NCBI GenBank assembly: GCA_035523995.1
Contig: DATKPQ010000181.1
Span: forward strand, 15,312 to 79,311
DNA from: Acetobacteraceae bacterium
GTDB taxonomy: Bacteria > Pseudomonadota > Alphaproteobacteria > Acetobacterales > Acetobacteraceae
DNA: 64,000 bases
Direction of reading: 5' to 3'
The notes under the pieces: generated by a model
What the model was told of the DNA's origin: nothing
The model's database searches: none
Seen by the model: the letters and a program-made list of their open reading frames with translations, nothing else
In this document: piece by piece, positions 36,784 to 54,802 of the stretch
Layout of the letters: every line of letters begins with the position of its first letter
How positions within the stretch are numbered: position 1 is the stretch's first letter
Translations under genes and position numbers: made by a program

Positions 36784-37161
36784 TCATGCCCAGTGTCCCC
36801 CCATCCAGACCCAGCCGCCACCCGGTTGCTCGGCCCAGCGCCCGGGCACCCAGGTCGTCTCCCCCGGCGGCACCTGCACATATTCGCCACCTGCCCACTG
36901 CCAGGGGTTCGCGGCATTCCCGGTGTACTCCCAGTGCCCCGGCTGCCAGACCGAGGGAGGTCCGCCGACCGGAGGAGGCGGCTCCAATTCGGCGTGTGGG
37001 GGCGGCGGTGGCATCGGCGACATGTTCGGCGGTGCCGCCTGTACCACTGGCGGCGGCTGCACGATCACCGAAGTTGTCTCCGGCGGCGGCGATCCGCCAC
37101 AGGAAGCCAGCAATAGAAGCCCTGGTGCTGCCAGCCAGGCGTAATGCGGCCGGATCATCAT
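36784..37161 (-). CDS. lipoprotein with Pro-rich linker and GHW/YxWGxW-type Trp-rich repeats
   Basis: Lipobox LLLASC. C-terminal WQPGHWEY...WQWAGGEYV...WVPGRWAEQPGGGWVWMGGHW. Start at the MMIRP doublet after GGGAGGA. Confidence 0.7.
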   Translation of the reverse strand: MMIRPHYAWLAAPGLLLLASCGGSPPPETTSVIVQPPPVVQAAPPNMSPMPPPPPHAELEPPPPVGGPPSVWQPGHWEYTGNAANPWQWAGGEYVQVPPGETTWVPGRWAEQPGGGWVWMGGHWA

Positions 37162-37171
37162 GTCCTCCCGG

Positions 37172-37501
37172 TCAGCTCCGCCAATGCCCGTCAATCCACA
37201 CGTATCCGCCGCTGGCCTCCTGCTCCCAGTGGCCGGGCTCCCAGACCGCTGCTGGCGCAGGCCGTTGCACATAGCGGCCCTCGTGCCAGACCCAGGTGCT
37301 GCCATTCCAGCCCCAGTGGCCTGCTTCCCAGGTCACCGTCGTGCTCGGCGGCGGCGGCACAGTCTCCGTCTCCGGCGGTGGCGGTGCGCCGGGCGCAATG
37401 ATCACGGTGGAACTCTGGGCCGACGCCGGCACAACCGCGCCCCCGATGGCGAACGCGGCGAGGGCCGGCAGGCTGTAGCGCATCAAGTTTCCGATAGTCA
37501 T
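37172..37501 (-). CDS. secreted paralog with the same GHW/YxWGxW-type repeats
   Basis: Signal peptide MRYSLPALAAFAIGGAVVPASAQ. WEAGHWGWNGSTWVWHEGRYV...WEPGHWEQEASGGYVWIDGHW. Confidence 0.7.
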   Translation of the reverse strand: MTIGNLMRYSLPALAAFAIGGAVVPASAQSSTVIIAPGAPPPPETETVPPPPSTTVTWEAGHWGWNGSTWVWHEGRYVQRPAPAAVWEPGHWEQEASGGYVWIDGHWRS

Positions 37502-37681
37502 GCATCGTCTCCTTGGTGTCGTTGAAAGTCAGCATCCAAGACATGCCGAACGCGTGACTTGGTTCGGCGAGACAACATGGTTGCGGTGAATTGGGGCGAT
37601 ACTTGGCCGCCGCCAACCATTGGTTCTTCACAACTGATCGATATCTAAAACCGCCCACCAGCCTGTGAAGGAACCGCCGAT

Positions 37682-37698
37682 ACTTGACTCAGTCAAGT
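37682..37698. promoter_or_regulatory. perfect 7-3-7 palindrome upstream of the MarR-GNAT gene (candidate MarR operator)
   Basis: acttgac-tca-gtcaagt, 24 nt upstream of ATG 37722. Confidence 0.45.
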
Positions 37699-37721
37699 TT
37701 TCGGCGCGATGCTGCGGTTCC

Positions 37722-38672
37722 ATGTCAGCCACCGCCTCATCCTCTGCCCCAGTCTCCGCCGGCGCCGAGCAACGCGTCGCCGCCGTCCGGCGCTTCAGCC
37801 GCTTCTACACCGGCATTATCGGTGCTTTGCAGGAAGGCTCGCTCCGGAGCGATTTCTCCCTCACCGAGGTTCGGGTTCTGTACGAACTGGCGAACCGTCC
37901 GGGCACCACGTCGAGTGCTCTTGGCCGGGACCTGGGGCTGGATGGCGGGTACCTCAGCCGCATTCTCCAACGGTTCACCCAGGATGGCCTGGTGGCGCGC
38001 GGGGCCTCCGACACCGATCGCCGGCAGATCGTGCTGACATTGACCGATGCCGGTCGCGCCGCGTTCGCGCCTCTGGATGCGCGTTCGCGCGAGGAAGTCG
38101 GCGCCCTGCTCGCCCGCCTGCCTCCGGCCGCCCAGGAGGCGGTCGTCGCGGCCATGGGGCGCATCGAAACGCTCCTGGGCGCAGCACCGGCCACCCCATG
38201 GCGGCTGCGCGCGCCAGGCCCGGGAGACATCGGCTGGGTGATCTCGCGCCACGGTGCGCTCTATGCCGAGGAATATGGCTTCGACTCGCGCTTCGAGGCG
38301 CTGGTCGCGCAGGTCGCCGGAGCCTACCTCGCCAACCACGATCCGGTTCGTGAAGGCTGCTGGATCGCAGAGCATGACGGCATCCCATTGGGGTCGGTGT
38401 TCCTGGTTCGCGCCGACGACGAGCTGGCGAAGCTGCGTCTGCTTTTGGTTGAGCCGGGTGCGCGGGGCCTGGGCATCGGCAAGCGGCTCGTCTCGGAATG
38501 CATCGCCTTCGCTCGCACCGCCGGCTATCGGCGCATCACGTTATGGACCAACGATATCCTTGTCGCTGCACGGGCCATCTATCTGGCGGCCGGGTTCCGG
38601 CTGGTGGCGAGCAAGCCGCACACTATGTTCGGCCCCGCAATGGTTGGCGAAGACTGGGAACTGAGCCTCTGA
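37722..38672 (+). CDS. bifunctional MarR-family transcriptional regulator / GNAT N-acetyltransferase
   Basis: N-terminal MarR wHTH (FSLTEVRVLYELANRPGTTSSALGRDLGLDGGYLSRILQRF...DRRQIVLTLTDAG). C-terminal GNAT (LLVEPGARGLGIGKRLVSECIAFAR...YRRITLWT). Confidence 0.85.
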   Translation: MSATASSSAPVSAGAEQRVAAVRRFSRFYTGIIGALQEGSLRSDFSLTEVRVLYELANRPGTTSSALGRDLGLDGGYLSRILQRFTQDGLVARGASDTDRRQIVLTLTDAGRAAFAPLDARSREEVGALLARLPPAAQEAVVAAMGRIETLLGAAPATPWRLRAPGPGDIGWVISRHGALYAEEYGFDSRFEALVAQVAGAYLANHDPVREGCWIAEHDGIPLGSVFLVRADDELAKLRLLLVEPGARGLGIGKRLVSECIAFARTAGYRRITLWTNDILVAARAIYLAAGFRLVASKPHTMFGPAMVGEDWELSL

Positions 38673-38904: not shown

Positions 38905-39080
38905 GATATTTATCGACCACTGTCACAGTAGAAGCTTGCCGGGGTCGTCGGAAAAAACGTCATCGGATTTACGAATCAAGGTACCTGGGGAGCGCGCCGC
39001 ACCTCCTTGTTATTATCGGGCTTGGCCCGGCCAACAACCGGTGCAGATCAGGTGTGCCAAAAGCGCCCGATCCCCGGTGC

Positions 39081-39111
39081 GCAGATGGCCGGCTCAAGGC
39101 CGGCCATGACG
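39081..39111. repeat. family C repeat unit
   Basis: gcagatggccggctcaaggccggccatgacg. Confidence 0.6.
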
Positions 39112-39165
39112 GGAATGGCGAAGCACCCCGCTCAAGTTTAGCGTCTGAGGGGCTCGATCCGGCGG

Positions 39166-41103
39166 TCATCCAAAATGACTGGGCGCAGTTCGCGTGATGT
39201 GACGCCATCGGCCAAACGTAGACGCCCGGATCAGGCCCGGCCACGACGTGGCGGCGTGGTGCGGCGCTGTTTCGTCCAAGTGCACGTCGGAGGGGCCGGT
39301 GGGTGCGTGTCTCGCAACGACAGAAAGCGCGGGCCGCGTGTCTGTTGCGGCGCTTGGCTTCACGCGTTCAACGGATCGCTCCACCTGTTGCATTGCCGGC
39401 CAGGCATCGCTCAGCCAGTTGCGTATCTGCCCGATAAGCTCCGCACGCACCCGAGCGGCGCCCAGCGTATGGTCGGCGTCCGCGAGCGAGCGAAGCGTCA
39501 CGTGCGGCTGCTTGCGCAGCCGCCAACCTTCGTGGCCGAAATACTCCGCCAGCTCTTCCACGCCCGGATCGTTGCACCCTAACACATAAAGTATTCTGAC
39601 GCCACGCTGGCCGAGCGTCCGTGCCATCTGACGTACCCGTCCCACACGCGTTGCGCCGCGGAAGACAAGAGCGAGCAATGGATCGATGCCGGCAATGGTC
39701 CGTCGCAGCAGCCGCAACCCCAACACGCGGGCAAGATTCAGCACGTCGAAATCAGCGCGCAGCAACCGGCGCCACGCATCGACACTAAAAATCTGGCGCA
39801 AATAGAATCGTGTCGGGCGCAGGTCGGTACGGCGGATCGCATCGGGCACATCACCGTCGCGCCAGGCAAAGCGTTGCAGATTCACCAGGACCAGGCCGGC
39901 AATCCGCTGATCGCGAGGGGCGGCCTGCAATGCGTGATAGGCGCCAGAACACACACCCAGGACCGCCACCCGTTGCCCGGTGCGCCGGTTCAATTCTGCC
40001 ACGGCAGACATCACGTCGCGCGTCAGCGTCTCGGCGTAGGGTCGACCGAGATCGCCTGTGTGTGGCGCGGAGTCACCCATGCCGGATGCATCCATCCGCA
40101 GTACCGCAACCCCGTCGGCGGCGAGGCCGCGGGCCAGATCGACTGCAATACGCGCATTGCCCCAGCGGGGATTGGCGCTGGTATTCACCACCAGCATTGC
40201 AGGCGCTTCCGGCGCCGGCCGAACGGGCATCGAGAGGATGCCGAACAATTCTGTGTGGATACCGAAATAGATCGGCATTTCCGATGCGACACCAACATCC
40301 AGTGAGGCGTCACCAGCCATCTCAGGCGCAATACGAGCCCCTGCCATGGCGGGCAATGATCTCACCCATTGCGCGACGCGCGCGAAGGCAGCCGCTGGCA
40401 CCTCGGCTTGATGCGAATCGCGCATCAGGCTGGCGAGGTCTTCGAATGGCTCCACCACCGTGTCCGTGCCGAGGCGTTGCAACGTGTCCACCACCTGCTG
40501 CGTTGCTGCCCGTATCTCCGGCTGCAGCAACAACGCCTGCCGCGCGGGCTGCCTGGGCAGCTTGCGAAGATCGAGCGCCGACAGGGCATCGCGCGTGGCA
40601 TGGTCCATGCGCAGGCCGTGCGCTTCGAACCAGGTGCCGTCATCCACCTTATGGCTGGTCTGCCAGACACGCTGCGAAATTCGCGCGGCCAGTGTCATTT
40701 CATGCAGGAAATGGCGCCCGCTTACGGGGCTCAGCAGCACGAGCGAATCCGCGGTGTCGGTTTCGCAAGCGACGCGGGCCGCCAGACTGGCGCCGATCCG
40801 ATGGCCGACCAGAGTCACCGCATCGACGCCATGTGCGCACAGCCATGCCATGCCGGCCTTGATGCTATCCAGCCATTGCGCAAAGCGCTCGGGTTCACTG
40901 TCTTCGCCGGCTGAATCGCCGGTGCCGTAATACGACAGACGCAGGGTCGGAAAATCGGCCGCAGCCAATTGCTCCGCCAGGAATGCCAACGGACGGTAAG
41001 CGTTCAGCGCCTCATCCGACAGCGAACCGCAGATCAGCACGCCCCGCCGGCTGCGGCCGGGGTGCAGCATGCCGAAGCAGCCGGAAAGGTAAACCGGGAT
41101 CAT
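39166..41103 (-). CDS. fused tandem alpha/beta-hydrolase-fold protein (two lipase-box domains: GHRIG and GVCSG)
   Basis: 645 aa. Domain 1: GCFGMLHPGRSRRGVLICGS...LRLSYYGTGDSAGE...TLVGHRIGASLAA. Domain 2: ELFGILSMPVRP...MLVVNTSANPRWG...LRMDASGMGDSA...VAVLGVCSGAYHAL...GCNDPG...ADADHTL. ATGA overlap with the upstream monooxygenase gene. Confidence 0.8.
   Translation of the reverse strand: MIPVYLSGCFGMLHPGRSRRGVLICGSLSDEALNAYRPLAFLAEQLAAADFPTLRLSYYGTGDSAGEDSEPERFAQWLDSIKAGMAWLCAHGVDAVTLVGHRIGASLAARVACETDTADSLVLLSPVSGRHFLHEMTLAARISQRVWQTSHKVDDGTWFEAHGLRMDHATRDALSALDLRKLPRQPARQALLLQPEIRAATQQVVDTLQRLGTDTVVEPFEDLASLMRDSHQAEVPAAAFARVAQWVRSLPAMAGARIAPEMAGDASLDVGVASEMPIYFGIHTELFGILSMPVRPAPEAPAMLVVNTSANPRWGNARIAVDLARGLAADGVAVLRMDASGMGDSAPHTGDLGRPYAETLTRDVMSAVAELNRRTGQRVAVLGVCSGAYHALQAAPRDQRIAGLVLVNLQRFAWRDGDVPDAIRRTDLRPTRFYLRQIFSVDAWRRLLRADFDVLNLARVLGLRLLRRTIAGIDPLLALVFRGATRVGRVRQMARTLGQRGVRILYVLGCNDPGVEELAEYFGHEGWRLRKQPHVTLRSLADADHTLGAARVRAELIGQIRNWLSDAWPAMQQVERSVERVKPSAATDTRPALSVVARHAPTGPSDVHLDETAPHHAATSWPGLIRASTFGRWRHITRTAPSHFG
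39218..39248. repeat. family C repeat unit lying inside the 3' end of the hydrolase ORF
   Basis: gtagacgcccggatcaggcccggccacgacg, read on the minus strand as ...TSWPGLIRAST... in the last 25 codons of ORF 39166..41103. Confidence 0.55.
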
Positions 41104-42134
41104 CTCCCAACCGTTATCGCCGGAATGGTCGCCTGGTCCGCGGCCATGCGGATGACGATGGCCGCCGTTTCCAGATCATCAGCGTTGGTCGGAATGTCCA
41201 GGATGAAACTGCGATGCCCGAGCGCAAGATATCGTGCGATTTCCTGCGCCACCGTGACGAAGTCGCCCACCAGATACGGGCAGAACGTCCGGTGTTGCTC
41301 GAACGGCCACAGCCAGTAGGGGCTGCCGTCGGCGGGGCGCTCACGCGCGAGGTCCGAAAGCGTGCGATGCCAGACTGAATCGCTGGTCTTCATGGCAAGC
41401 GTATGGCTGAGACGGCCACGGCGATCGTCCGGAAAGCGCGCCTGGGCGATGGACCAGGCGTCATTGGCGCTGTCGCGGGCGATGATGCCGACACGTATGC
41501 CGCGTCCTGCCGGCACGCCGTCGTTGTGGCCGGCGGCGGCATCGGGCGGCGCGGGATATTCGACAGCGATCGCGCCCATCGCCACCGCAGCCGCACGACC
41601 CGCGGCCGACGAGCCGGAAATCAACCAACCTGGCTGCAGAGTTTCCGGCAATGCGGGTGCCAGCCGCACGCCGTGCGCGCGATAGAAGCGGCCGGCGAAA
41701 TTCACCGGTGCGTCATTCTCCAGCAACTGCCGCATCAGCAGGGCATATTCGACAGTGCGGGCGTAGCGGTCATCATGCGGCGTTTCGTCGCCCAGTGCGA
41801 TCAGGTCGTTGCGGAAACCTCCGGCGAGCATGTTCAACCAGATGCGCCGGTCGTGAAGCGTAGCAAGCGACGCGACCATCTTTGCCGCCGTGTATGGCAG
41901 CATGTAGACCGGCTGCACCGCGACCAGTGGGCACAGGCGTTCCGTGCATTGCAGCGTTACCTGTGCCACCAGCCAGGGATCGACGATGCTGTTGTCGGTG
42001 TAGATCAGCATGCCAGTGCAGCCCGCCGCTTCGCTCCAACGGGCGACGCGCTGGATCTGCGGCAGATACTCGTCGCGCGCGAAGTCTTTCGACTGCGGGC
42101 AGGTACTGAAGATCCGGATGCCGTCGTCCGACAT
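41100..42134 (-). CDS. LLM-class (luciferase-like) flavin-dependent monooxygenase, SsuD-like
   Basis: IRIFSTCPQS...YLPQIQRVARWSEAAGCTGMLIYTDNSIVDPWLVAQVTLQCTERLCPLVAVQP...WLNMLAGG...DDRYARTVEYALLMRQLL parallels my memory of the SsuD N-terminal half. 344 aa. Confidence 0.8.
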   Translation of the reverse strand: MSDDGIRIFSTCPQSKDFARDEYLPQIQRVARWSEAAGCTGMLIYTDNSIVDPWLVAQVTLQCTERLCPLVAVQPVYMLPYTAAKMVASLATLHDRRIWLNMLAGGFRNDLIALGDETPHDDRYARTVEYALLMRQLLENDAPVNFAGRFYRAHGVRLAPALPETLQPGWLISGSSAAGRAAAVAMGAIAVEYPAPPDAAAGHNDGVPAGRGIRVGIIARDSANDAWSIAQARFPDDRRGRLSHTLAMKTSDSVWHRTLSDLARERPADGSPYWLWPFEQHRTFCPYLVGDFVTVAQEIARYLALGHRSFILDIPTNADDLETAAIVIRMAADQATIPAITVGR

Positions 42135-42139
42135 TGCCG

Positions 42140-42403
42140 CTATGCCGGTGCGGCGAACGCCGCGGCGAGACGGCGCAGGGTGACGCCGCTTTCGAAATCC
42201 ATGCCCTCGGCGTCGAACATCTGGCCCGAGCCTTCTTCGGCATCGAGAATCATGTCGAGCAGGCCTTGTGAATCGACAAGGCCGAGTTCGACCAGGTCGC
42301 TATCGGGGGCGACCCTGGTGGCGTTACGGCCATCCTGGCGCAGGCGCCGTGCGAGGGCATCGCTCAACAGCCGCAATAGATTGCTATCCTCGGCGGCGAT
42401 CAT
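42140..42403 (-). CDS. acyl/peptidyl carrier protein
   Basis: 87 aa with the phosphopantetheine attachment motif LGLVDSQGLLDMI. ATG 42403 forms an ATGA overlap with the stop of the adenylation gene. The TTG start at 42415 in the track is less likely. Confidence 0.8.
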   Translation of the reverse strand: MIAAEDSNLLRLLSDALARRLRQDGRNATRVAPDSDLVELGLVDSQGLLDMILDAEEGSGQMFDAEGMDFESGVTLRRLAAAFAAPA

Positions 42404-44073
42404 GTCTTGCTGCAAGTCTCTGCCTCCATCATGGCGCGCAACCGGCCGTGGTCGGTTTTGCCGCTGTTGTTCAGGGGCCAGTCATCGATGCGACGGATCG
42501 CCGACGGCACGGCGTAAGGTGGCAGGGCGTCACGGCAGGCCTGCAGCAAAGCGTCGTCGGGGAGGCTCGTGTTGCCGACGAACCCGACGATGCCACGCGC
42601 CAGCCCGTCCGGGCCGATCGGCCAGGCGATCGCCGCGGCATTGGTGTCGCCGGCACGGTGCAGCACGGCTTCCACTTCCTGCAATTCCACACGATGACCG
42701 GCTATTTTTACCTGTCGGTCCAGCCGGCCGAGAAACACAAGTCCGTGGTTACGACTGTTTCGTACACGGTCACCGGTACGGTACCACACGCGCTCGTCCC
42801 AGGCGAAATGAACAAAGCGTTGAGCGGTGAGATCGGGGCGCCGCCAGTAGCCATCGGTAACCTGGCTGCCGGCGAGGCATAGTTCGCCTTCCTCGTCTTC
42901 GCCTGCGGGTGCGTCGAATGGGTTGACGGCAATTGCACCCTGGCCTGGCAACGGTTTGCCAATCGGCAAGACCTCGGGCAACGCATCCAGAGCATGGTCT
43001 TCACGCGGCAGGCGCCAGGCTGTCAGCGCGATCGTGGCCTCGGTGGGTCCGTAGAGATTCTCGATGGTTGCGTTCGGTGCCGCGGCGGCCCAGGCGCGGG
43101 CGAGGCGTTTCGGCAAGGCTTCGCCGCAGAACAGACTGAGACGCAGGCTGGGGAAATCGCCGGGGCGCAACGCGCGCAGGCCCAGCATGGTTGCCGCGGT
43201 GGACGGCACCGAGAACCACGTTGTCAACGCATGCCGGCGGACGAAGTCGCGTGGTGCGAAGCGTACGTTGTCCGGCACGCGGTACAATGTGGCGCCGGCG
43301 CCCCAGGCGAGGAACATGTCGTGCACCGACAAGTCGAAGGTCAGATCGAACAACTGGGTGCAGCGGTCATCGGGCCTTGGCGCATAACGCGCCGCGATGG
43401 AGCGCAGGTATGGCATGACGTTACGGTTTCGGACCAACACGCCTTTCGGTGCGCCCGTGCTACCGGAGGTGAACAAGAGGTAAGCGCCGTCTTCCGGATT
43501 TGCGTGTGGCGGGCCATCAACGCACGGCTGCGGCAAATCCGCTTCCGGCAGGAAGCGATGGCGGGTGTGGATTGCCCAGTCAGGGGCCGAGGACGAGTCC
43601 GGCAGCAAGACGAGTACTGAATGCGGCGTATCTTGCAGGACGGCGCGGGCGTGGGCCAGGTGATTGCGGTCGACCACCAGCGCCTGTGCTTCGGCGTCGC
43701 GCATGATTTGCGCGAGGCGCTGGGATGGATGCCGCGAATTCAAGGGAACATAGGCGCAGCGTGCCATCGACGCGCCGACAACGCCCACGAAATCGATCAG
43801 CTTGCGGCTGCCAAGGATGGCACAGCGCGCCCCGCCGTCGTTAAGACCTGCCGCCGTAAGGCTCTGCGCGATGCGCGATGCGTGTGACAGAAGAACTTCG
43901 TAGGAGACGAATTCTCCGTCCACCCACAGCGCAGGTCGTGTCGCGTGAAGCAGGGCGCTGCGGTGGAACACGGTTCCGAGCGTAGAGGCGGAGAATGTGT
44001 CGCGATTTGGCGGCGCATTTGCGTGTTCGGCCGCACTCCATGCGGAACCGTCATGTCTAGCGTGTTGATCCAC
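42400..44073 (-). CDS. stand-alone adenylation enzyme (ANL superfamily, NRPS A-domain/DltA-like)
   Basis: Core motifs A3 LLFTSGSTGAPKGV, A4 TFDLSVHD (Asp of FDxS retained), A5 NLYGPTE, A7 YRTGD, A8 GRLDRQVKIAGHRVEL, A10 NNSGKTD. GTG start with GGAAG upstream. No C, T or TE domain fused. Confidence 0.85.
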   Translation of the reverse strand: MDQHARHDGSAWSAAEHANAPPNRDTFSASTLGTVFHRSALLHATRPALWVDGEFVSYEVLLSHASRIAQSLTAAGLNDGGARCAILGSRKLIDFVGVVGASMARCAYVPLNSRHPSQRLAQIMRDAEAQALVVDRNHLAHARAVLQDTPHSVLVLLPDSSSAPDWAIHTRHRFLPEADLPQPCVDGPPHANPEDGAYLLFTSGSTGAPKGVLVRNRNVMPYLRSIAARYAPRPDDRCTQLFDLTFDLSVHDMFLAWGAGATLYRVPDNVRFAPRDFVRRHALTTWFSVPSTAATMLGLRALRPGDFPSLRLSLFCGEALPKRLARAWAAAAPNATIENLYGPTEATIALTAWRLPREDHALDALPEVLPIGKPLPGQGAIAVNPFDAPAGEDEEGELCLAGSQVTDGYWRRPDLTAQRFVHFAWDERVWYRTGDRVRNSRNHGLVFLGRLDRQVKIAGHRVELQEVEAVLHRAGDTNAAAIAWPIGPDGLARGIVGFVGNTSLPDDALLQACRDALPPYAVPSAIRRIDDWPLNNSGKTDHGRLRAMMEAETCSKT

Positions 44074-44218
44074 GGCGAAACTTCCGAGCCTGCCGCCATT
44101 CAGATATTACGGAAAACGAATCGGTTCCAATCAGCTACCGGTGATAGACGGGAATGTGAGATTGCGGCTGCTGCTTTGATGGCATTCGTCGGGACCGTGG
44201 TCGATCTGGCGGGCTCGT

Positions 44219-44327
44219 GTCATTGCGAGGCCCGCAGGGCCGAAGCAATCTTCGGCGTCAGAGCACTCGGACGGTTCATACGCGTTGCCGGTGGAGATTG
44301 CTTCGGCCCTGCGGGCCTCGCAGTGAC
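44219..44327. repeat. family A inverted-repeat element, copy A4
   Basis: gtcattgcgaggcccgcagggccgaagcaatc ... gattgcttcggccctgcgggcctcgcagtgac, with near-perfect 32-nt arms. Lies between the carbamoyltransferase and adenylation genes. Confidence 0.85.
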
Positions 44328-44361
44328 ATGATCTGCGACAATAGGACCAGATCAATCCTGC

Positions 44362-44392
44362 GCAGATGGCCGGATCAAGCCAGGCCAAGACG
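44362..44392. repeat. family C repeat unit overlapping the carbamoyltransferase stop
   Basis: gcagatggccggatcaagccaggccaagacg. The last roughly 6 codons (PRLGLA-stop) of ORF 44375..46144 are read from it. Confidence 0.6.
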
Positions 44393-46144
44393 GGGATCGT
44401 CGCGCAGCGCCACCCGCGCATTCGCAATGTAGAGCGCGTCGATACCCATTTCGAGGAAGGTATCCAACGCCTCTTCTTCTGTGCAAACGATCGGCTGGTG
44501 ATTGACGTTGTAGCTCGTGTTCAGCACCACCGGAACGCCGGTCAGCGCCTTCAGCCGAGACAGCAGATAATAGAATGCCGCATTATGGTCGCGGCACACC
44601 GTCTGCACGCGCGCGGTGCCGTCCACATGGGTCACGGCGGGCAGCAGCGCCTTGGCTTCCTCGCGCACGTGGGTCAGCATCGTCATGTAAGGATATTCCT
44701 CACCGGCGTTGAGGACGAAGTACCGATGGGCGTCTTCGGCCGCGACGGCGGGCGCGAACGGGCGGTAGTTCTGCCGCTTCTTGATCGCCAAATTGATGCG
44801 GTCCTTGTTCTCCGCCTTGGCCGGCAAGGCGAGCAAGCTGCGGTTGCCCAGGGCGCGGGCACCGTATTCCATGCGGCCGTGGCACAGTGCCACGATCTTG
44901 TCCGCCGCAATATCGGCTGCCGCGCTATCCAGCATCTGTTGCTCGTCGTCGAATTCGCGCAGCGCGAGCGTGCTGTCTTGTGCGACGATCGAACGCACCC
45001 GATCGGGACGCGGCGCCGGACCGAAGAACGGCATCACGCCGGGCAGGTGCAGCGGCGCGCCGTTGCTGAAGACATGTGCCGCGGCGGCGCCCAAGGCAGT
45101 GCCTTCATCGCCCGACGCGTAGGCAACATGGATGCGCTCGAACATGCCGTTGGACCGCAATTCGCCAATGGCAGCGCAGTTCTCGGCACAGCCGCCGCTC
45201 AGCAGCAGGTTGGTGGCCCTGGTCTGCTGCCGGTAGTGGCCGCAGATATGGAACAACGCCTCACGGAAACGTTCCTGCAGGGCGGCGCTGAGGTCGGCGC
45301 GTTCCTGGTGGGAACATGTGTTCCCGTCGATCCCCAGGCCCTCGGCCAACGCCCCGGCGCTGCCGGTAAAGAACAGACTTTCGGTGAAGCCGCGGTTCAG
45401 GGTGAGACAAGGGATTTCGATGCTGCCGTTGGGGCCCAGGCGAATGGCTGACCGGAAGAATGTGCGATAGCGTTGCGGATCGCCAAAGCTGGCGAGGCCC
45501 ATCACCTTGTATTCGTCCTCGTTGAACGCATAGCCGAGGAACTGCGTGACCAGCGAATAGAACAAGCCCAGCGACTGCGTCACCGGATAACGCGCCAGGC
45601 GCATGATCTTCGGGCCGTCGAAATGATAGACCGAGGTCGCGCCGATCTCGCCGGCCGCGTCCATCACCACACCAAGTCCTTGCTCGAACTCGCAGCTTGC
45701 CAGGGCGGCGTGCAGGTGCGCGTCGTGATGGTCTATCGGGTGGAACTGCGTGGCGTTGCCGGCGCGGAACTGCGTCTTCAGCAGATTGAAAATGGCGTCG
45801 GGCGCCAGGCATTTCTGCCAGTAGGCGCGGGGCAGGTCTTCCGATGTATAGATCGGCCGGTAGCGGCCAAAATTGAAGTTGCAGCAAATGTCGCTGACCT
45901 CGGCGAGCGTCGCGCCGGCCTCGTTCAGGCAATACCGGATCGCCTGGAAGGGGAACGCCCCGCTTTTCTTGTTGCGGTCGAACCGCTCCTCGGATGCGGC
46001 AGCGATGATCCTGCCATCCAACAAAAGCGCGGCAGCGGCATCCATGCCCTGCACCACGCGCGAATCCTTCGCCATTTGTTCCGGGAAGTGTTGCTCGAGG
46101 AAACCGGTTACGTTTGCCAGTCCGGCAATCCCCAAAGTGAGCAT
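44375..46144 (-). CDS. NodU/CmcH-family carbamoyltransferase
   Basis: 589 aa. IAAASEERFDRNKKSGAFPFQAIRYCL, PIDHHDAHLHAAL, LSGGCAENCAAIG, C-terminal domain RMEYGARALGNRSLLA...RPFAPAV...VTHVDGTARVQTV...PVVLNTSYNVNHQPIV. The usual HD of the N-terminal YHDS motif reads GMDA here. Confidence 0.85.
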   Translation of the reverse strand: MLTLGIAGLANVTGFLEQHFPEQMAKDSRVVQGMDAAAALLLDGRIIAAASEERFDRNKKSGAFPFQAIRYCLNEAGATLAEVSDICCNFNFGRYRPIYTSEDLPRAYWQKCLAPDAIFNLLKTQFRAGNATQFHPIDHHDAHLHAALASCEFEQGLGVVMDAAGEIGATSVYHFDGPKIMRLARYPVTQSLGLFYSLVTQFLGYAFNEDEYKVMGLASFGDPQRYRTFFRSAIRLGPNGSIEIPCLTLNRGFTESLFFTGSAGALAEGLGIDGNTCSHQERADLSAALQERFREALFHICGHYRQQTRATNLLLSGGCAENCAAIGELRSNGMFERIHVAYASGDEGTALGAAAAHVFSNGAPLHLPGVMPFFGPAPRPDRVRSIVAQDSTLALREFDDEQQMLDSAAADIAADKIVALCHGRMEYGARALGNRSLLALPAKAENKDRINLAIKKRQNYRPFAPAVAAEDAHRYFVLNAGEEYPYMTMLTHVREEAKALLPAVTHVDGTARVQTVCRDHNAAFYYLLSRLKALTGVPVVLNTSYNVNHQPIVCTEEEALDTFLEMGIDALYIANARVALRDDPRLGLA

Positions 46145-46301: not shown

Positions 46302-46910
46302 TTACTTCTTCTCCCGCCGGGCCACCGCGAGTTCTTCACGAAGACGTTCTACTTCCGCGCGTAGCCTCTCGACTTCGTCGGCAGCGTCTGGCCGGCTGTG
46401 TGGGGCTTCGCCCGGCGGCCGGTAGAATGGCGAGAACAAATTGAACGCCCGTTCCATCATGGCCATGTTCTGGCGGCCGACCTCCTCCATATTGCCGAAC
46501 GGGAACAACGTTCCCACCGACCCCATGGTCTTCTGCATCGCCGCCCGCATTTGCTCCTGCTGCTGCGCGAACGCGGCCATTGCTTGCTCCAAGTATTTCG
46601 GCACCAGGCTTTGCACCTGATCACCATAGAAGCCGATTAGCTGGCGTAGAAAAGCGGTGGGCAGCAGGTTGCGGCCCTTGCCTTCCTCCTCCACGATGAT
46701 CTGGGTCAGCACGCCGCGGGTGATGTCCTCGCCGGTCTTGGCGTCGTACACCACGAAATCCCGACCTTCGCGGACCATTTCAGCCAGGTTGTCCAGCGTG
46801 ATGTAGCTGGAGCTCCGGGTATCGTAGAGTCGGCGGTTGGCGTATTTCTTCACCACGATCGGCGGTTCGGCGGTTTTGGTCTCAGGCGCGGTCTGGACGT
46901 CGTCGGCCAT
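46302..46910 (-). CDS. phaR: polyhydroxyalkanoate synthesis repressor PhaR
   Basis: IVVKKYANRRLYDTRSSSYITLDNLAEMVREGRDFVVYDAKTGEDITRGVLTQII is the PhaR N-terminal signature. Start MADDVQ after GAGGAAAAAACCCC. Confidence 0.9.
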   Translation of the reverse strand: MADDVQTAPETKTAEPPIVVKKYANRRLYDTRSSSYITLDNLAEMVREGRDFVVYDAKTGEDITRGVLTQIIVEEEGKGRNLLPTAFLRQLIGFYGDQVQSLVPKYLEQAMAAFAQQQEQMRAAMQKTMGSVGTLFPFGNMEEVGRQNMAMMERAFNLFSPFYRPPGEAPHSRPDAADEVERLRAEVERLREELAVARREKK

Positions 46911-46980
46911 GGGGTTTTTTCCTCGCGGCGGGGCGTTTTGCCTAGCATGCCCGGCCATGCCGCGCTTGCGAAGGTGTTTT

Positions 46981-46991
46981 CTGCACCGCAG
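46981..46991. promoter_or_regulatory. candidate PhaR operator (CTGC-N3-GCAG)
   Basis: ctgcaccgcag, 71 nt upstream of the phaR ATG in the divergent intergenic region. Matches the CTGCN3GCAG palindrome I recall as reported for Rhodobacter PhaR. Confidence 0.45.
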
Positions 46992-47062
46992 CGCGGATTG
47001 ACGTTCCGCGAACGCCACCATGCTCCTATGGTCCTCCGGCGCACAAGGAGGGCGAATGAGGC

Positions 47063-47635
47063 ATGAGCGACGGCCCTGGCCGGGACGATGGCCCAGGCCC
47101 GGACCTGCGGAAACTGGCGCAGGACTGGATTACGCTGTGGCAGAGCGAGTTGGCGGGGATGGCGGCCGACCGCGAAGCGCAGGAGGTGTGGCAGGCCATC
47201 GTACGGGTTTGGGCTGCGGCGACCGCGGGCATGCTGCGGGCGATGCCGGTGGGGCAGGCAGGGTACTCGCCTTCCAAACAATCCGCAGCCCCCTCTCGCT
47301 GGCCATCTCCCGCGGCGGCGCCCCCTCCCCCGTCGGTCCACCCCGCGGCCCAACCCTCCACAAGGGGAGAGGGTGCTTTGTCCTCTCCTCCGCGCAACGG
47401 CCATGACCGCGCCGCTGCAACGACGGGGGCCGCGGCCGCTGCTGCTTCACCTGACGCTCGCGATGATGAGATCGAGCGCCTCGCGCGCCGCGTCGCTGAA
47501 CTGGAAGCACGCCTGGCCGAACTCGAACGAGGCGATGGCAGCGGCGGTACGCGAGGCGCTGGAAGCGGGCGCGGCGGGCGCGTTCCCCGCCGCCGTGTGG
47601 GAAGAGACGCTGCGGCAGGACGCAGCCCTGATTGA
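47063..47635 (+). CDS. small PHA-locus protein; only the first roughly 65 codons look native, the rest reads through a repeat and into the next gene out of frame
   Basis: MSDGPGRDDGPGPDLRKLAQDWITLWQSELAGMAADREAQEVWQAIVRVWAAATAGML is GC3-rich. From about 47265 the frame crosses repeat B3 (PPPPSVHPAAQPSTRGEGALSSPP), then overlaps the PhaC-like frame, which has much higher GC3. Confidence 0.4.
   Translation: MSDGPGRDDGPGPDLRKLAQDWITLWQSELAGMAADREAQEVWQAIVRVWAAATAGMLRAMPVGQAGYSPSKQSAAPSRWPSPAAAPPPPSVHPAAQPSTRGEGALSSPPRNGHDRAAATTGAAAAAASPDARDDEIERLARRVAELEARLAELERGDGSGGTRGAGSGRGGRVPRRRVGRDAAAGRSPD
47320..47392. repeat. family B G/C-tract repeat, copy inside coding sequence
   Basis: gccccctcccccgtcggtccaccccgcggcccaaccctccacaaggggagagggtgctttgtcctctcctcc, including the hairpin ccctcc-acaag-gggagaggg. 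Confidence 0.6.
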
Positions 47636-48590
47636 AGGCATCGCTGCCTATCGCCGTCATCCGTGGCAGCGCGACCTGCCGGACCCGCCGGCGGTCTGGC
47701 AGGAGGGCGGGAGCCGGGTGCTGGATTATGGCGGCGAGGGACCGCGCGTGCTGTTTGCGCCCAGCCTGGTGAACCGGGCCTATGTGCTGGACCTGGCGCC
47801 TGACCATTCGATGCTGCGGTGGCTGGCCGGGCAGGGGGTGCATCCGCTGCTGCTGGACTGGGGCTGGCCGGGCGAGACCGAGCGCCGCTTCACCCTGACC
47901 GACTACGTAGCCGGCCGGCTGGAGCGGGCGCTGGTTGCGGCGGGCGCCGGCACCGTGCTGGCCGGCTATTGCATGGGCGGCACGCTGGCCGTCGCCGCGG
48001 CCCAACGCCGGCCGGACCTGGTGCGGGCGCTGGCCTTGCTTGCAGCGCCTTGGGATCTCCATGCGCCCGATCCGACGGTAGCGATCCAGGCCGCCGAGAT
48101 GCTGCCGCTGATCGAGCCGGCGCTGGCGTTCAACGAGACGCTGCCGGTGGACCTGCTTCAGGTGTTGTTCGCGCTGCTGGACCCGTGGGGCGTGGCGGAC
48201 AAATACCGCAGCTTCGCGCGCCAGGACCCCGCAGGCGAGCGCGCGCGGCTGTTTGTCGCGCTGGAGGACTGGCTGAACGACGGCGTGCCGCTGGCCGCGC
48301 CGGTGGCACGGGAGTGCCTGGCCGGCTGGTACGGCGCCAACACGCCTGCTCGTGGAGAATGGCGGATTGCGGGGCTGGCGGTGGACCCGCGGGCGTTACG
48401 GCTGCCGTGCTTCGTGGCGGCGCCGGCGCGGGACCGGATCGTGCCGCCCGAGTCCGCACGGCCGCTGGCGGCGCTGATCGACGGCGCCGCGCTGATTGAA
48501 CCGGCCGCCGGGCATATCGGCATGGCGGCAGGCCACAGTGCGAAACGCGCGCTGTGGGAGCCGTTCAGAAACTGGGTGTTGAAGATCTAA
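47403..48590 (+). CDS. PhaC-like alpha/beta-hydrolase (class III-type poly(3-hydroxyalkanoate) synthase-like, Cys lipase box)
   Basis: GYCMGGTLA (G-x-C-x-G-G PHA synthase lipase box), LLDWGWPG, EDWLNDG, AAGHIGM. Start MTAPLQRRGPRPLLLHL chosen from GC3; ATG 47535 is an alternative. Confidence 0.75.
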   Translation: MTAPLQRRGPRPLLLHLTLAMMRSSASRAASLNWKHAWPNSNEAMAAAVREALEAGAAGAFPAAVWEETLRQDAALIEGIAAYRRHPWQRDLPDPPAVWQEGGSRVLDYGGEGPRVLFAPSLVNRAYVLDLAPDHSMLRWLAGQGVHPLLLDWGWPGETERRFTLTDYVAGRLERALVAAGAGTVLAGYCMGGTLAVAAAQRRPDLVRALALLAAPWDLHAPDPTVAIQAAEMLPLIEPALAFNETLPVDLLQVLFALLDPWGVADKYRSFARQDPAGERARLFVALEDWLNDGVPLAAPVARECLAGWYGANTPARGEWRIAGLAVDPRALRLPCFVAAPARDRIVPPESARPLAALIDGAALIEPAAGHIGMAAGHSAKRALWEPFRNWVLKI

Positions 48591-51611: not shown

Positions 51612-51658
51612 TACCGAACGGACTGAACGCATGAACTGAAACCGTGTTGGAGGCTGCG

Positions 51659-52963
51659 ATGACGATTGACGCCGGTCGCCTCGTCGATTCAACCAACGGA
51701 TTGCTCAGCCGACGGATATTCATAGAGCCGGAGATTTATGAGCAGGAATTGCAACGAGTTTTTGCGAGATGCTGGCTGTTTTTGTGTCATGAAAGTCAGG
51801 TACCAATGCCGGGCGATTTCTTCGCCACGTATATGGGCGAGGATCCGGTACTGGTGGTGCGCGACAGCAGCGGGACGGTGCGCGCTTTTCTCAATATCTG
51901 CCGTCACCGCGGCAATCGCCTGTGCCGTGCCGAGAGCGGCAATGCCGCTTCGTTCATTTGCGCGTATCACGGCTGGACCTTCGGCAATGACGGCCGGCTG
52001 ACCGGCGTGCCGTCGCTGCGCGAGGCCTATTATGGCGAACTCGACCGATCGCAGTGGGGATTGATCCCGGTCGCACAGCTCGACAGCCACAAGGGGCTGC
52101 TGTTCGCGACCTTCGACCCGGAGGCACCGCCGCTGCGCCACTACCTGGGGGAAATGGGCTGGTATCTCGACACCTTTGTCGACCGGCGCGAGGGCGGCGT
52201 CGAAGTCGTTGCTATGCATAAATGGATCATGCCGTGCAACTGGAAGTTTCCGGCGGAAAATTTCGGTGGCGACACCTATCATGTTGCCTGGAACCATCTG
52301 TCCGCGGTGCGGACCTCGTTCAGCACAGGCGTGACGACGAAGGCCAACTCCGGCGGCGCGATGGTGTCGCCGGGCAACGGCCACATCCTGATTTGTGTCG
52401 GTCCGGACGACAGCGGCGAACCGCCGGTGCCGGAGTTGCAGGCCTATGAGGCGGACACGGCGGCGGAGGTCGCGCAGCGGCTTGGGCCGCGCAGTGCGCA
52501 CATCAATCCGCTCGTGGGCACGATGTTTCCAAATTTCTCGCTGCTGCGGGCCACGTCGCGCACGTTCCGGGTCTGGCATCCGCGCGGACCGGAGAAGACC
52601 GAGGTCTGGTCATGGGTCTTTGCCGACAAGGCGGCGCCGCCGGCGGTGAAACAGGCGCTGCGCCTGACCGGCATACGCGGCTTCAGCCCATCCGGCACCT
52701 TCGAGCAAGACGACATGGACAATTGGCAGGAGTGCACGCAGACCTGCCGCGGCGCGGTGTCCCGGCGCATGAAGCTGAATACGCAGATGGGGCTGGGGCA
52801 CGACCGTTTCGATCCGCGGCTTGGCGCGCTAGCCAGCACATTCCGCATCAGCGAGAGCAATCACCGTCTGTTCTATCAGCGATGGGCGGATCTGATGGAC
52901 GCGCCGCGCTGGGCCGACTTGCCGTGCCGCAGGGAGTTCGCGGAGGTGAGCCATGCCGCCTGA
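51659..52963 (+). CDS. aromatic ring-hydroxylating (Rieske non-heme iron) dioxygenase, alpha subunit
   Basis: Rieske CRHRGNRLC...CAYHGW. Mononuclear iron region [19 protein letters not shown] before ATG 51659. Confidence 0.9.
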
Positions 52964-53498
52964 CGGAGTGATTCGCGAGGTAGAGCAATTCCTCTACCGC
53001 GAAACGCGTCTGCTGGACGAGCGGCGCTTTCACGAATGGCTGGAATTGCTTGCGCCCGACATCCATTATTCGATGGCGGCGCGCGGTATTCGTTATCCGA
53101 AATCGAGCAAGGCGATCGCGATCCTGGATCGGTCGCGTTATGTCGAGGAGGATCCGATGGGCGAGGAAGACCTCGCTTTGTTCGATGAAACGCGGGAGTC
53201 GCTGGCGGCACGGGTCGCGCGGCTGGACACGGGCATGGCGTGGGCCGAGGACCCGCCGTCGCGGACGCGGCATTTCATCAGCAATATCGAGGTGGCGGTG
53301 GGCGAGCGCGACGGCGAAGTGCGCGCGCGGTCGAACTACATTGTGTATCGCAGCAGGGCGGAGACCGAGCAGGATTTCTATGTCGGGGCACGGGATGATG
53401 TGCTGCGGCGGTGCAACGGCGCGTGGCAGATCGCGCGGCGGCGGTTGGTGCTGGATCAGAACGTCGTGCTGGCGAAGAATCTGAGCATATTCTTCTGA
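52953..53498 (+). CDS. aromatic ring-hydroxylating dioxygenase, beta subunit
   Basis: 181 aa, SnoaL-like. [31 protein letters not shown]...RTRHFISN...YRSR. Overlaps the alpha stop by 11 nt. Confidence 0.85.
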
Positions 53499-53533
53499 GC
53501 GCTTCCGGTTTCATCGCCAGGACCGTGATGCCG

Positions 53534-53725
53534 TGTCATCGCGAGGGCCATAGTGTCCATGTCGTTGCGAGCTGACCACCGGCGCTGTGGCCGACCCGCC
53601 CTGGATGAAACGGCACGTCGCGGACCCTGCCCGTGATGGACGGGCAGAACCCGATGGACGGGCAGGACCCGGCCAGATGCGCCACTTGATCGAGGTTGCT
53701 TCGCCGCTACGCTCCTCGCAGCGAC
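53534..53725. repeat. family A element, enlarged copy A6 (two tandem left-arm fragments, internal short direct repeat, right arm)
   Basis: gtcatcgcgag / gtcgttgcgag at 53535 and 53561; gatggacgggcag x2 near 53635-53665; right arm ggttgcttcgccgctacgctcctcgcagcgac at 53693-53724. Confidence 0.55.
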
Positions 53726-53752
53726 ATTGGCTTGCTGCCAAGGAGTTTCACA

Positions 53753-54802
53753 ATGCGCGTTTCGATGGTGCTGCCGGTGGAGGATTGGGCGGCGTGCGGA
53801 CCCGCCGCGCGCCAGGCCGAGGAGGACGGCTTCGACTGCGTTACCGCCAACGAGTTGCGGCATGATCCGTTCTCGCCACTGGCCTTCGCGGCACTGGCAA
53901 CGCAGCGCGTGGAACTGGCAACGTCGGTGGCGATCGCATTCCCGCGCAGCCCGATGATCGTGGCAAACCATGCCTGGGATCTGCACCGGCATTCGAAGGG
54001 GCGGTTCGTGGTGGGGCTGGGCAGCCAGGTGAAGGCCCATAACGAGCGGCGGTTTTCGGTGCCCTGGATCGCCCCGGCGGCACGCATGGGCGAATACGTG
54101 CAGGCGTTGCAGGCGATCTTTCGCTGCTGGGAGAACGGGGAGAAGCTCGACTACCGCGGCAGGTATTACACGTTCACGCTGATGACTCCGGAATTCTCGC
54201 CGGGGCCGCTGGGGCTGCCGATGCCGCGGATCGCGCTGGCGGCGGTGGGGCCGGTGATGCTGAAGACAGCGGCGCGCGTGGCGGACAGCGTACGGCTGCA
54301 TGGGTTCGCGACACGGCGGTATCTGGAGGAGGTGGTGCGGCCGATGCTGGCGGCGGAACTGGAGGCGGCGGGGAAGTCGTTCGATGGTTTTGAGGTAACC
54401 GGTGGTGGGTTTGTGGTAACCGGGCCGGATGAGGCTGCCGTGCGCGCGGCAGCGGAGAAGATTCGGTATCGCGTGGCGTTCTATGGATCGACGCCAGCGT
54501 ATCGCGGGGTATTCGATCTTCATGGGCTTTCGGATCTTGGCGTGCGGCTGACAGAGAAGTCGAAGCAGGGCGCCTGGAAAGAGATGGCGTCGCTGGTGTC
54601 CGACGAGGTGCTGGATCTGTTCGTGGCGCGGGCGCCGTATGAGGGGATCGCGGAGGCGATCGAACGGAGGTTCGGGGGGATTGTCGATACTTTGTCGATC
54701 GACTTTGCGCCGGGGACCGATGCGGGGACGCGACGGAGGGTGGTGGACGCAATTCATAACTTCTCCCGCGCGCGGGAGAGGTCGGCGCGCAGCGCCGGGT
54801 GA
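53753..54802 (+). CDS. LLM-class (luciferase-like) oxidoreductase, TIGR03617-like putative F420-dependent family
   Basis: MRVSMVLPV...AEEDGFDCVTANELRHDPF...ATSVAIAFPRSPM...GRFVVGLGSQVKAHNERRF... AAGGAG RBS. The last roughly 12 codons (SRARERSARSAG) are read from a repeat. Confidence 0.75.
   Translation: MRVSMVLPVEDWAACGPAARQAEEDGFDCVTANELRHDPFSPLAFAALATQRVELATSVAIAFPRSPMIVANHAWDLHRHSKGRFVVGLGSQVKAHNERRFSVPWIAPAARMGEYVQALQAIFRCWENGEKLDYRGRYYTFTLMTPEFSPGPLGLPMPRIALAAVGPVMLKTAARVADSVRLHGFATRRYLEEVVRPMLAAELEAAGKSFDGFEVTGGGFVVTGPDEAAVRAAAEKIRYRVAFYGSTPAYRGVFDLHGLSDLGVRLTEKSKQGAWKEMASLVSDEVLDLFVARAPYEGIAEAIERRFGGIVDTLSIDFAPGTDAGTRRRVVDAIHNFSRARERSARSAG

Follow-up and report, generated by a model that had tools for sequence, protein, structure and literature searches.

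A five-gene carrier-protein cassette of Acetobacteraceae predicted to activate, tailor and off-load a glycyl unit

Outside non-ribosomal peptide synthetase (NRPS) lines, the aminoacylation of carrier proteins is known from few systems, such as Dlt and AlmEFG, both of which remodel the cell envelope and affect resistance to antimicrobial peptides. AlmEFG adds glycine to the lipid A of Vibrio cholerae, and the more distant DltABCD is responsible for the D-alanylation of teichoic acids. Both follow the same logic: a stand-alone ligase loads a small amino acid on a small carrier, and a membrane transferase (the LpxL-type AlmG, or the MBOAT protein DltB with DltD) passes it to a cell-surface molecule. 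Another group of loading enzymes, the amino acid--[acyl-carrier-protein] ligases that resemble aminoacyl-tRNA synthetases (aaRS), has had known structures and substrates for over a decade. These ligases of amino acids to carrier proteins (aa:CP ligases) load glycine or alanine, and their biological role was still described as unknown in a 2022 review (PMC9437257). Amino acids can also be tailored while tethered: the flavin monooxygenase domains of the NRPS modules MtaG, MelG and SolF hydroxylate the C-alpha of carrier-bound glycyl, and the stand-alone flavin monooxygenase of skyllamycin biosynthesis provides a further precedent (PMC10204066). Here, we describe a five-gene cassette in a stretch of 64,000 nucleotides from an uncultured soil Acetobacteraceae bacterium (assembly GCA_035523995.1, contig DATKPQ010000181.1, positions 15,312 to 79,311), hereafter the window. 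The cassette resembles AlmEFG, Dlt and the aa:CP-ligase operon in its working but is a member of none of them. Its components are familiar and their combination is new.

The cassette comprises five head-to-tail open reading frames (ORFs) on the minus strand, at window positions 39166-46144. In order, they encode a carbamoyltransferase, an adenylation enzyme, a carrier protein, a monooxygenase and a two-domain alpha/beta-hydrolase, and they are strongly supported as one operon. ATGA start/stop overlaps could be read directly at 42400-42403 (adenylation enzyme/carrier) and 41100-41103 (monooxygenase/hydrolase), and the TAG of the carrier gene lies 5 nt from the ATG of the monooxygenase gene. The five ORFs were found where an original prediction, made from the DNA letters, had placed them; its description of a compact, same-strand, non-canonical carrier-protein unit with four translationally coupled genes at its end agrees with the ORFs, the families and the junctions. 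Transmembrane-like segments are lacking in all five proteins. We also surveyed the surroundings, using a Pfam scan of 30 further window ORFs and the gene calls of the source contig within 10 kb. This survey gave no condensation, thioesterase, ketosynthase or acyltransferase gene and no exosortase or exopolysaccharide (EPS) gene, as had been predicted on both counts. In addition, neither the cassette nor the scanned ORFs hold a counterpart of AlmG, DltB or DltD; the transferase slot is occupied by the soluble two-domain hydrolase, which has a cysteine as its nucleophile, and the cassette has a flavin monooxygenase and a carbamoyltransferase in addition. Tentatively, and as something slightly less than evenly balanced, we read the whole as a self-contained operon that activates, tailors and transfers glycine on a carrier, probably to a carbohydrate acceptor.

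The block is not confined to the window. A scan with one genome per species returned 35 loci of the hydrolase, and these loci were searched by tblastn with the window proteins. At least nine of them (L001 and L004-L011, hereafter type 1) have the five genes in the same order, with hydrolase identities of 53-100%, and all nine come from metagenome-assembled genomes (MAGs) of soil and peat Acetobacteraceae. At three loci (L040, L041 and L042) the block is intact and both flanks are entirely different from those of the window. Since the block is kept while its flanks differ, we consider it a conserved unit and not a chance neighbourhood, which also answers the question of co-conservation that the original prediction had raised.

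The second gene (42400-44073, 557 aa) encodes a stand-alone amino-acid adenylation enzyme of the AlmE/IdnL7 type. It matches AMP-binding and clears the cut-off of TIGR01733, the model for amino-acid adenylation domains (333.4 versus 317.4 bits), whereas the DltA models give 212-216 bits against cut-offs of 476-560. As predicted, its core motifs (A3, A4 as FDLS, A5, A7, A8 and A10) are all present, and the two residues that mark an amino-acid substrate, Asp235 (the contact of the alpha-amine) and Lys517, are kept as D247 and K539; together with the TIGR01733 score, they support the earlier suggestion of an amino-acid substrate. The ten Stachelhaus positions, read from alignments, spell the specificity code DLHFSFLIAK (D247 to K539), which is invariant in all type-1 orthologues except for S or G at position 299. 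Among solved structures, 8k4r, 4oxi and 6akd come closest over the specificity region. Entry 4oxi, which we take to be AlmE of V. cholerae, has the code DLHLSFLIA; eight of the nine positions visible in the aligned fragment are identical to those of the cassette enzyme, position 517 falling outside the fragment. The code of 6akd is DCFFSFLIT. The bulky His239, Phe278 and Phe301 would leave space for only a very small side chain. Natively, AlmE charges AlmF with glycine (PMC12930378). Because the two pocket codes are nearly identical, the cassette enzyme is probably a glycine--[carrier protein] ligase.

The putative acceptor of this glycine is the 87-aa carrier protein (42140-42403), whose ATG overlaps the stop codon of the adenylation gene. 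Its phosphopantetheine site would be Ser45 (codon 42269-42271; site GLVDSQGLL) in the motif GLVDSQGLLDMIL. The DS motif (LxDSQ) is invariant in eight orthologues, which bears out the predicted phosphopantetheinylation site.

The last gene (39166-41103, 645 aa) encodes the two-domain alpha/beta-hydrolase, related to TIGR03101 in its N-terminal half and to TIGR03100 in its C-terminal half. An AlphaFold2 model (pLDDT 83, pTM 0.83) has alpha/beta-hydrolase folds at residues 1-255 (40339-41103) and 270-580 (39364-40296), with pLDDT above 90 over most of the N-terminal half. The tail (residues 581-645, 39166-39363) is unconserved and predicted to be disordered: pLDDT falls below 50 for residues 582-645, orthologues stop about 40 residues earlier and leave it unaligned, and its GC content at third codon positions is 0.68 versus 0.72 in the core. 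Neither sequence searches nor Foldseek against the PDB gave a two-domain solved relative. The matches were generic esterases and proteins of the monoacylglycerol lipase type, each of a single domain, and in Foldseek they reached target TM-scores of 0.55-0.70.

Residue conservation was read from alignments of 16 and 64 family members. The G-x-S-x-G nucleophile with its Asp/His triad, typical of canonical serine alpha/beta-hydrolases and type II thioesterases, is present in neither half. In the N-terminal half, the elbow reads G100-x-R102-x-G104, with a near-invariant arginine (codon 40798-40800) at the position of the nucleophile, and residue 231, where a histidine should follow the last strand, varies between H, Y and F. 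In the C-terminal half, G383-x-C385-S-G387, N511-D512-P513 and D544-H545-T546 are invariant in 64 homologues and supply a Cys385-Asp512-His545 triad (codons 39949-39951, 39568-39570 and 39469-39471). Cys385 aligns with the nucleophilic serine of solved esterases. Thus, of the earlier picture of two fused hydrolases, the two folds and the cysteine nucleophile of one of them stand, but the N-terminal half has neither a nucleophile nor a conserved histidine. This fold probably has no catalytic role and would serve for binding or as a scaffold. The C-terminal half is plausibly the sole catalyst, a cysteine enzyme suited to thioester-to-thioester acyl transfer, and we predict that it takes over the acyl group of the carrier in thioester linkage.

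The hydrolase belongs to a large family. A collection of 5.8 billion proteins holds 245 homologues, nearly all of about 600 aa, and an exhaustive HMMER search with the C-terminal half returns, at E <= 1e-30, 348 clusters of 50% identity, the majority being two-domain proteins of 550-640 aa. The shorter proteins that resemble the C-terminal half keep the cysteine as well: all seven that were inspected carry G-x-C-[SA]-G-A. Some members are fused to further domains. In particular, P0315 (815 aa) ends in a NodB-type polysaccharide deacetylase, an Acidimicrobiales MAG (L036, 8288-11704) encodes a protein of 1138 aa with an N-terminal Polysacc_synt_3 (Wzx-like) membrane domain, and P0353 (1019 aa) has an extra N-terminal region of about 440 aa.

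Roughly 17 of the 35 hydrolase loci carry a different cassette (type 2) instead. Its order is acyl carrier protein (ACP), acyl-CoA dehydrogenase (ACAD)-like flavoenzyme, a 304-aa protein, DUF1839, an 829-aa protein resembling glycoside hydrolase family 2 (GH2) and, finally, the two-domain hydrolase. With 469 bits on NF005479 (cut-off 357), the 304-aa protein (of L003) is an amino acid--[acyl-carrier-protein] ligase. The carrier is a PRK07081-type ACP, the flavoenzyme has SfnB and DszC among its named matches, and DUF1839 has a papain-like fold (PMC10318531). Type-2 cassettes are widespread in Alpha- and Betaproteobacteria. They occur in MAGs (L003 and L012-L025), and RefSeq annotates the same six genes in plasmid p2 of Azospirillum brasilense (L045, 3122-10794) and in pBRH01 of Mycetohabitans rhizoxinica (L046, 2853-10851). 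The two cassettes often share a genome (L009/L012, L007/L014, L010/L015, L006/L018 and L005/L025).

The terminal hydrolases of type 2 are the closest relatives of the cassette hydrolase (45-50% identity, covering about 88% of the length), much closer than those of the exosortase-A module and absent from the original prediction, and the hydrolases of both types share the two-domain build and the invariant Arg102, Cys385, Asp512 and His545. Two non-homologous loading systems thus end in the same kind of enzyme, from which we infer that the substrate of the hydrolase is an aminoacyl-S-carrier or a derivative of it; this shared terminal enzyme is the strongest evidence for such a substrate. The likeness to the aaRS-like operon (the Bll0957/Atu2573 type) extends to the carrier, the loading of glycine or alanine and the presence of a flavoenzyme. 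The two operons also differ. The loader of the cassette is an ANL adenylation domain and not a truncated class II aaRS, and an NF005479-type ligase is absent; its flavoenzyme is a luciferase-like monooxygenase (LLM) and not an ACAD fold; DUF1839 and the GH2-like protein are missing, and the carbamoyltransferase is added. A BLAST comparison of the window carrier with the type-2 carrier gave no match.

Two outlying occurrences of the hydrolase were also recorded. Caballeronia ptereochthonis (L027, 2531-9570) and Caballeronia peredens (L028) have a remote two-domain hydrolase of about 32% identity. Its neighbours are, on one side, a Rieske oxygenase and the Fer2/NAD reductase of that oxygenase and, on the other, an OsmC protein and an aldehyde dehydrogenase; no carrier is nearby, which suggests a different role for this branch of the family. 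Acidisphaera sp. L21 (about 30% identity) was considered as a bearer of the same system and ruled out, as its ligase is a long-chain acyl-CoA synthetase (NF006134, 650 bits), its monooxygenase is of the NtaA/DmoA type and its hydrolase reading frame is broken.

The original prediction had likened the cassette to the accessory module of exosortase A (TIGR03098, TIGR03099, TIGR03100 and TIGR03101). The homology is real and distant. The ligase matches TIGR03098, the two hydrolase halves match TIGR03101 and TIGR03100 as their best NCBIfam matches, and the order of hydrolase 2 followed by hydrolase 1 is that of the module. Each score, however, falls far below its cut-off (200.2 against 592.35 for TIGR03098, 133.9 against 168.45 for TIGR03100 and 100.1 against 202.75 for TIGR03101), and eight other members of the hydrolase family are likewise under the TIGR03100 and TIGR03101 cut-offs. 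A search for a bona fide XrtA hydrolase 1 gave only relatives below the TIGR03100 cut-off, all of them with cysteine. Moreover, the hydrolases are fused here, and the pyridoxal phosphate-dependent decarboxylase (TIGR03099) and an exosortase or EPS locus are absent from the cassette, from the surveyed window and contig, and from L040-L042. The sub-cut-off scores and the missing partners lead us to reject membership: that the cassette is a rearranged true member of the XrtA/EpsH module, serving PEP-CTERM and EPS biology, is very improbable, all the more so because its ligase passes the amino-acid adenylation model and the closest full-length relatives of its hydrolase reside in the amino acid--[ACP] ligase operon. 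A literature search found no description of this cassette, and none on an exosortase module with these models.

The cysteine of the hydrolase, together with the gene next to the cassette, raises a link to polyhydroxyalkanoate (PHA) metabolism, in which the hydrolase would be a PhaC-like polymerase or depolymerase working together with the PhaR and PhaC-like genes nearby. A Cys-Asp-His triad is likewise used by PHA synthases. PhaR (46302-47021, minus strand; PHB_acc_N and PHB_acc) stands directly upstream of the carbamoyltransferase gene, and beside PhaR lies a divergent alpha/beta-hydrolase ORF (47088-48590, plus strand) that matches Pfam Abhydrolase_1 only. However, PhaR is kept beside the block only in the four closest relatives, and the fold and sequence searches point to hydrolases of the esterase and monoacylglycerol lipase types rather than to PHA synthases. 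Given the varying flanks of L040-L042, beside which the block is intact, we reject the PhaR/PhaC adjacency as coincidental and give a role in PHA metabolism next to no credence.

The monooxygenase (41100-42134, 344 aa) is a luciferase-like, flavin-dependent enzyme (Bac_luciferase, 99 bits). Its best solved structure is SsuD (1m41, 90 bits). SsuD (105-109 bits against cut-offs of 510-518) and SfnG are its best named models, both far under their cut-offs; in particular, the SsuD equivalog TIGR03565 is not reached (105.2 against 518.2 bits), and membership extends to the LLM superfamily only. The predicted SsuD-like flavin monooxygenase can be retained in this sense. We propose that it oxidises the carrier-bound glycyl unit. 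The analogy is with MtaG, MelG, SolF and the skyllamycin enzyme, in which a flavin monooxygenase is paired with a carrier and with an adenylation domain that activates glycine, as is predicted here. The cassette enzyme, in contrast, is a free-standing SsuD-like LLM outside TIGR04020, and its glycyl would be held outside a growing peptide, in an operon with no condensation domain.

The same named matches could suggest a catabolic or sulfur-scavenging set, in which the monooxygenase desulfonates an organosulfonate and the ligase is an acyl-CoA synthetase that loads no carrier. SfnB and DszC among the matches of the type-2 flavoenzyme would fit this idea, as would the weak matches of the adenylation enzyme to many acyl-CoA ligase models. 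Nevertheless, we find it highly unlikely: the SsuD scores are about 105 bits against cut-offs of about 515, the ligase keeps Asp235 and Lys517 and passes TIGR01733, and the gene that lies between those of the ligase and the monooxygenase, in translational coupling, encodes a carrier. In addition, no ssuABCE sulfonate transporter or reductase was found in the window gene calls within 10 kb or at L040-L042.

Close homologues of the monooxygenase (62-67% identity) occur in three cultured organisms and reveal sibling cassettes: Caldovatus aquaticus (L043, 5920-10047), Roseomonas sp. M0104 (L044, 5819-10059) and Falsiroseomonas sp. HW251 (L048, 3224-11083). In Caldovatus and Roseomonas, the cassette encodes an adenylation enzyme, a 93-aa carrier, a 363-aa protein and the monooxygenase, and neither the hydrolase nor the carbamoyltransferase adjoins it. 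The adenylation enzyme (TIGR01733, 357 bits) has the same code, DLHFSFLIAK, and the Caldovatus carrier is 52% identical to that of the window. The 363-aa protein gives weak GNAT signals, and its Falsiroseomonas counterpart has a recorded Acetyltransf_9 match. In Falsiroseomonas, the part made up of ACP, GNAT-like protein and monooxygenase is duplicated around a formyltransferase inside the operon; a formyltransferase is also adjacent to the Caldovatus cassette, and the Roseomonas one is flanked by Bac_transf and an epimerase. Since the siblings keep the trio with neither the hydrolase nor the carbamoyltransferase adjacent, the adenylation enzyme, carrier and monooxygenase form the conserved core. 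By their sequence families, the off-loading enzyme (GNAT-like protein or cysteine hydrolase) and the one-carbon transferase (formyl or carbamoyl) appear as interchangeable accessories.

The first gene of the cassette (44375-46144) encodes a carbamoyltransferase of 589 aa, and its assignment to the NodU/CmcH family in the original prediction is upheld by both Pfam domains (Carbam_trans_N, 108 bits; Carbam_trans_C, 208 bits). It shares the architecture of the O-carbamoyltransferases NovN, GdmN, TobZ and NodU, namely a Kae1-like N-terminal domain with the H-x-x-x-H metal motif (residues 135-139) and a YrdC-like C-terminal domain. Its best solved relatives are NovN (9s2t, 322 bits), GdmN and TobZ, with scores in the range of 214-322 bits. 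It is no NodU equivalog, however (124 bits against a cut-off of 1000), and forms an orthologue group of its own (at least 59% identity), with a gap down to the homologues that come next (about 43%). This group is restricted to Acetobacteraceae and includes Teichococcus coralli (P0453) and Dankookia sp. P2. The gene is found in every type-1 locus, and the orthologues always adjoin carrier-protein-dependent ligases among the loci that were located, the T. coralli gene not being one of them.

The Dankookia orthologue (59% identity; L047, CP192581.1 3204945-3226492) lies inside a polysaccharide biosynthesis locus. It is followed by a fusion of an AcsA-like (acetoacetyl-CoA-synthetase-like) ligase with a peptidyl carrier protein (PCP) and then by a 295-aa ORF, which aligns with the C-terminal ~300 residues of a 1057-aa ligase-PCP protein of Roseomonas sp. 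M0104 (L044, 10519-13692). The locus also contains Bac_transf, Polysacc_deac_1, beta-helix proteins, an epimerase, a WecG glycosyltransferase, LPG_synthase_TM, YdjC and GT2.

Taken together, these parts can be arranged into a pathway. In the first step, which is well supported, the AlmE-type enzyme would adenylate glycine, or at most another very small amino acid, and attach it as a thioester to the phosphopantetheine on Ser45. The SsuD-like monooxygenase, dependent on reduced flavin mononucleotide (FMNH2), would then oxidise the tethered glycyl, most plausibly at C-alpha as MtaG, MelG and SolF do, using reduced flavin from a reductase encoded elsewhere. In the third step, which the family and its contexts suggest, the Cys385-Asp512-His545 domain would take over the acyl group as a thioester and deliver it to a hydroxyl or amine of an acceptor, or to water, with the N-terminal fold, in which Arg102 replaces the nucleophile, as a docking or substrate-binding partner. 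Finally, the carbamoyltransferase may carbamoylate either the glycyl unit, at the amine or the newly formed hydroxyl, or the acceptor. Carbamoyl capping of the glycyl would parallel the formyltransferase of the sibling cassettes and could stabilise alpha-hydroxyglycine. The acceptor would most likely be a carbohydrate (exopolysaccharide, lipopolysaccharide or oligosaccharide), and its genes would lie elsewhere in the genome. We favour a glycan acceptor because of the GH2-like neighbour of the type-2 hydrolase, the deacetylase and Wzx-like fusions, the distant homology to the XrtA hydrolases, and the Dankookia and Roseomonas contexts. The product that the original prediction had offered as speculation, an aminoacyl group that is oxidised, carbamoylated and transferred to a lipid, glycan or protein, would agree with these findings, which now tilt towards a glycan.

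Several points weigh against this pathway. No glycan gene is found near the type-1 loci examined, and the link to glycans comes from relatives and fusions; likewise, glycosyltransferase, flippase and membrane transferase genes are absent in or beside the type-1 cassettes that were examined (the window and L040-L042). The sequence of the cysteine domain does not separate transfer from mere hydrolysis. As for the oxidation, the nearest named relatives of the monooxygenase are sulfonate monooxygenases; the natural-product LLM family TIGR04020 is not among the 11 NCBIfam families that it matches at E <= 0.01; the substrate and regiochemistry proposed for it are a guess; and the cassette contains no flavin reductase. 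Alpha-hydroxylation of an uncapped glycyl thioester would also yield an unstable carbinolamine. The carrier scores 17.7 bits against Pfam PP-binding, under the gathering score of 20.8. Lastly, the glycine call is a pocket code read from alignments and not an assay, and AlmE itself mis-activates D-Ala (PMC12930378).

With no glycan gene near the type-1 loci, a small released metabolite remains a serious rival, even if on balance a doubtful one. According to this explanation, glycine, oxygen and a carbamoyl group are assembled into a diffusible compound with no macromolecular acceptor (for example, N-carbamoyl-2-hydroxyglycine, which is ureidoglycolate-like, or the O-carbamoyl form of hydroxyglycine or of N-hydroxyglycine), and the cysteine hydrolase is a releasing thioesterase. 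It would account for a block that is self-contained across unrelated contexts, with soluble proteins throughout and no acceptor, transport or glycan gene. The formyltransferase of the siblings (within the operon in Falsiroseomonas, adjacent in Caldovatus) fits a one-carbon N-cap that stabilises alpha-hydroxyglycine, and flavin monooxygenases are known to hydroxylate carrier-bound N-acylglycyl residues (PMC10204066). On the other hand, a two-domain cysteine enzyme with a dead partner fold is elaborate for plain hydrolysis, and the slot that it fills is held in the siblings by a GNAT-like transferase and not by a hydrolase. Its paralogues and fusions accompany glycan enzymes (GH2-like, polysaccharide deacetylase, Wzx-like), the solved relatives of the carbamoyltransferase are O- and not N-carbamoyltransferases, and no conserved exporter stands beside the block.

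Beyond the reading of the cassette as a glycine-transferring operon, a bolder proposal can be made, one that we regard as unlikely. The cysteine hydrolases may represent an unrecognised class of soluble aminoacyl-S-carrier transferases that off-load both AlmE-type and aa:CP-ligase systems, here placing an alpha-oxidised, carbamoylated glycyl on a polysaccharide or another envelope glycan of Acetobacteraceae from acid soils. If this is true, the long-orphan aa:CP-ligase operon gains a function too. The shared terminal hydrolase points to the off-loading step of that operon and offers a second, simpler system of five genes in which to study it, turning an old loose end into a testable hypothesis. 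The analysis also defines a large uncharacterised family of two-domain cysteine hydrolases, with hundreds of clusters at 50% identity, and suggests a new glycyl-derived modification, oxidised and carbamoylated, in the abundant uncultured Acetobacteraceae of soil and peat.

The cassette is accompanied by two kinds of repeats. A 64-nt direct repeat occurs at 39053-39116, downstream of the hydrolase stop codon, and at 44334-44397, where it overlaps the stop codon of the carbamoyltransferase gene. The copies are 75% identical and have the 15-mer CCGGCCATCTGCGCA in common, of which the window has two occurrences where 0.05 would be expected. Between the genes of the carbamoyltransferase and the adenylation enzyme, an inverted repeat (44215-44331) fills the gap, with 46-nt arms that are 87% complementary, and both arms match a 26-mer exactly (0 expected by chance). 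Its predicted RNA fold has an energy of -112 kcal/mol (z = -7.7), and the core of the hairpin is GCGAGGCCCGCAGGGCCGAAGCAATC. Within the window, hairpin and direct repeat are each confined to these sites, and they look like small interspersed elements of the repetitive extragenic palindromic (REP) or miniature inverted-repeat transposable element (MITE) kind. At the orthologous locus L042, the stop of the carbamoyltransferase gene overlaps the start of the adenylation gene by 4 nt and the hairpin is absent, which indicates that the hairpin of the window is a lineage-specific insertion into the operon. The repeats that had been reported around and within the cassette are thus real at these positions, but the part assigned to 38.7-39.0 kb found no support.

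A promoter and terminator scan gave nothing beyond shuffled expectation on the coding strand. The remaining genes of the window encode transporters, a sensor kinase, GMC and molybdopterin oxidoreductases, RpoH, PhaR, UvrA, cytochrome oxidase and similar functions. Divergent from the 3' end of the cassette, the ORF at 37665-38672 (plus strand) encodes a MarR-type regulator fused to a GNAT acetyltransferase, according to Pfam, a fusion that is not kept beside the cassette in other genomes. Two small ORFs overlap in different frames at 36784-37305 and 37172-37501 (both minus strand). Both are rich in Pro, Gly and Trp, with motifs such as GHWEYTG...WQWAGGEYV and GHWGWNGSTWVWHEGRYV, and the source contig has two small called genes here, of 109 and 124 aa, with no Pfam match. 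On the other side of the cassette, the region 51644-54802 (plus strand) encodes the alpha and beta subunits of a Rieske ring-hydroxylating oxygenase and, after them, another luciferase-like monooxygenase, unrelated to that of the cassette (53696-54802; 185 bits for Bac_luciferase).

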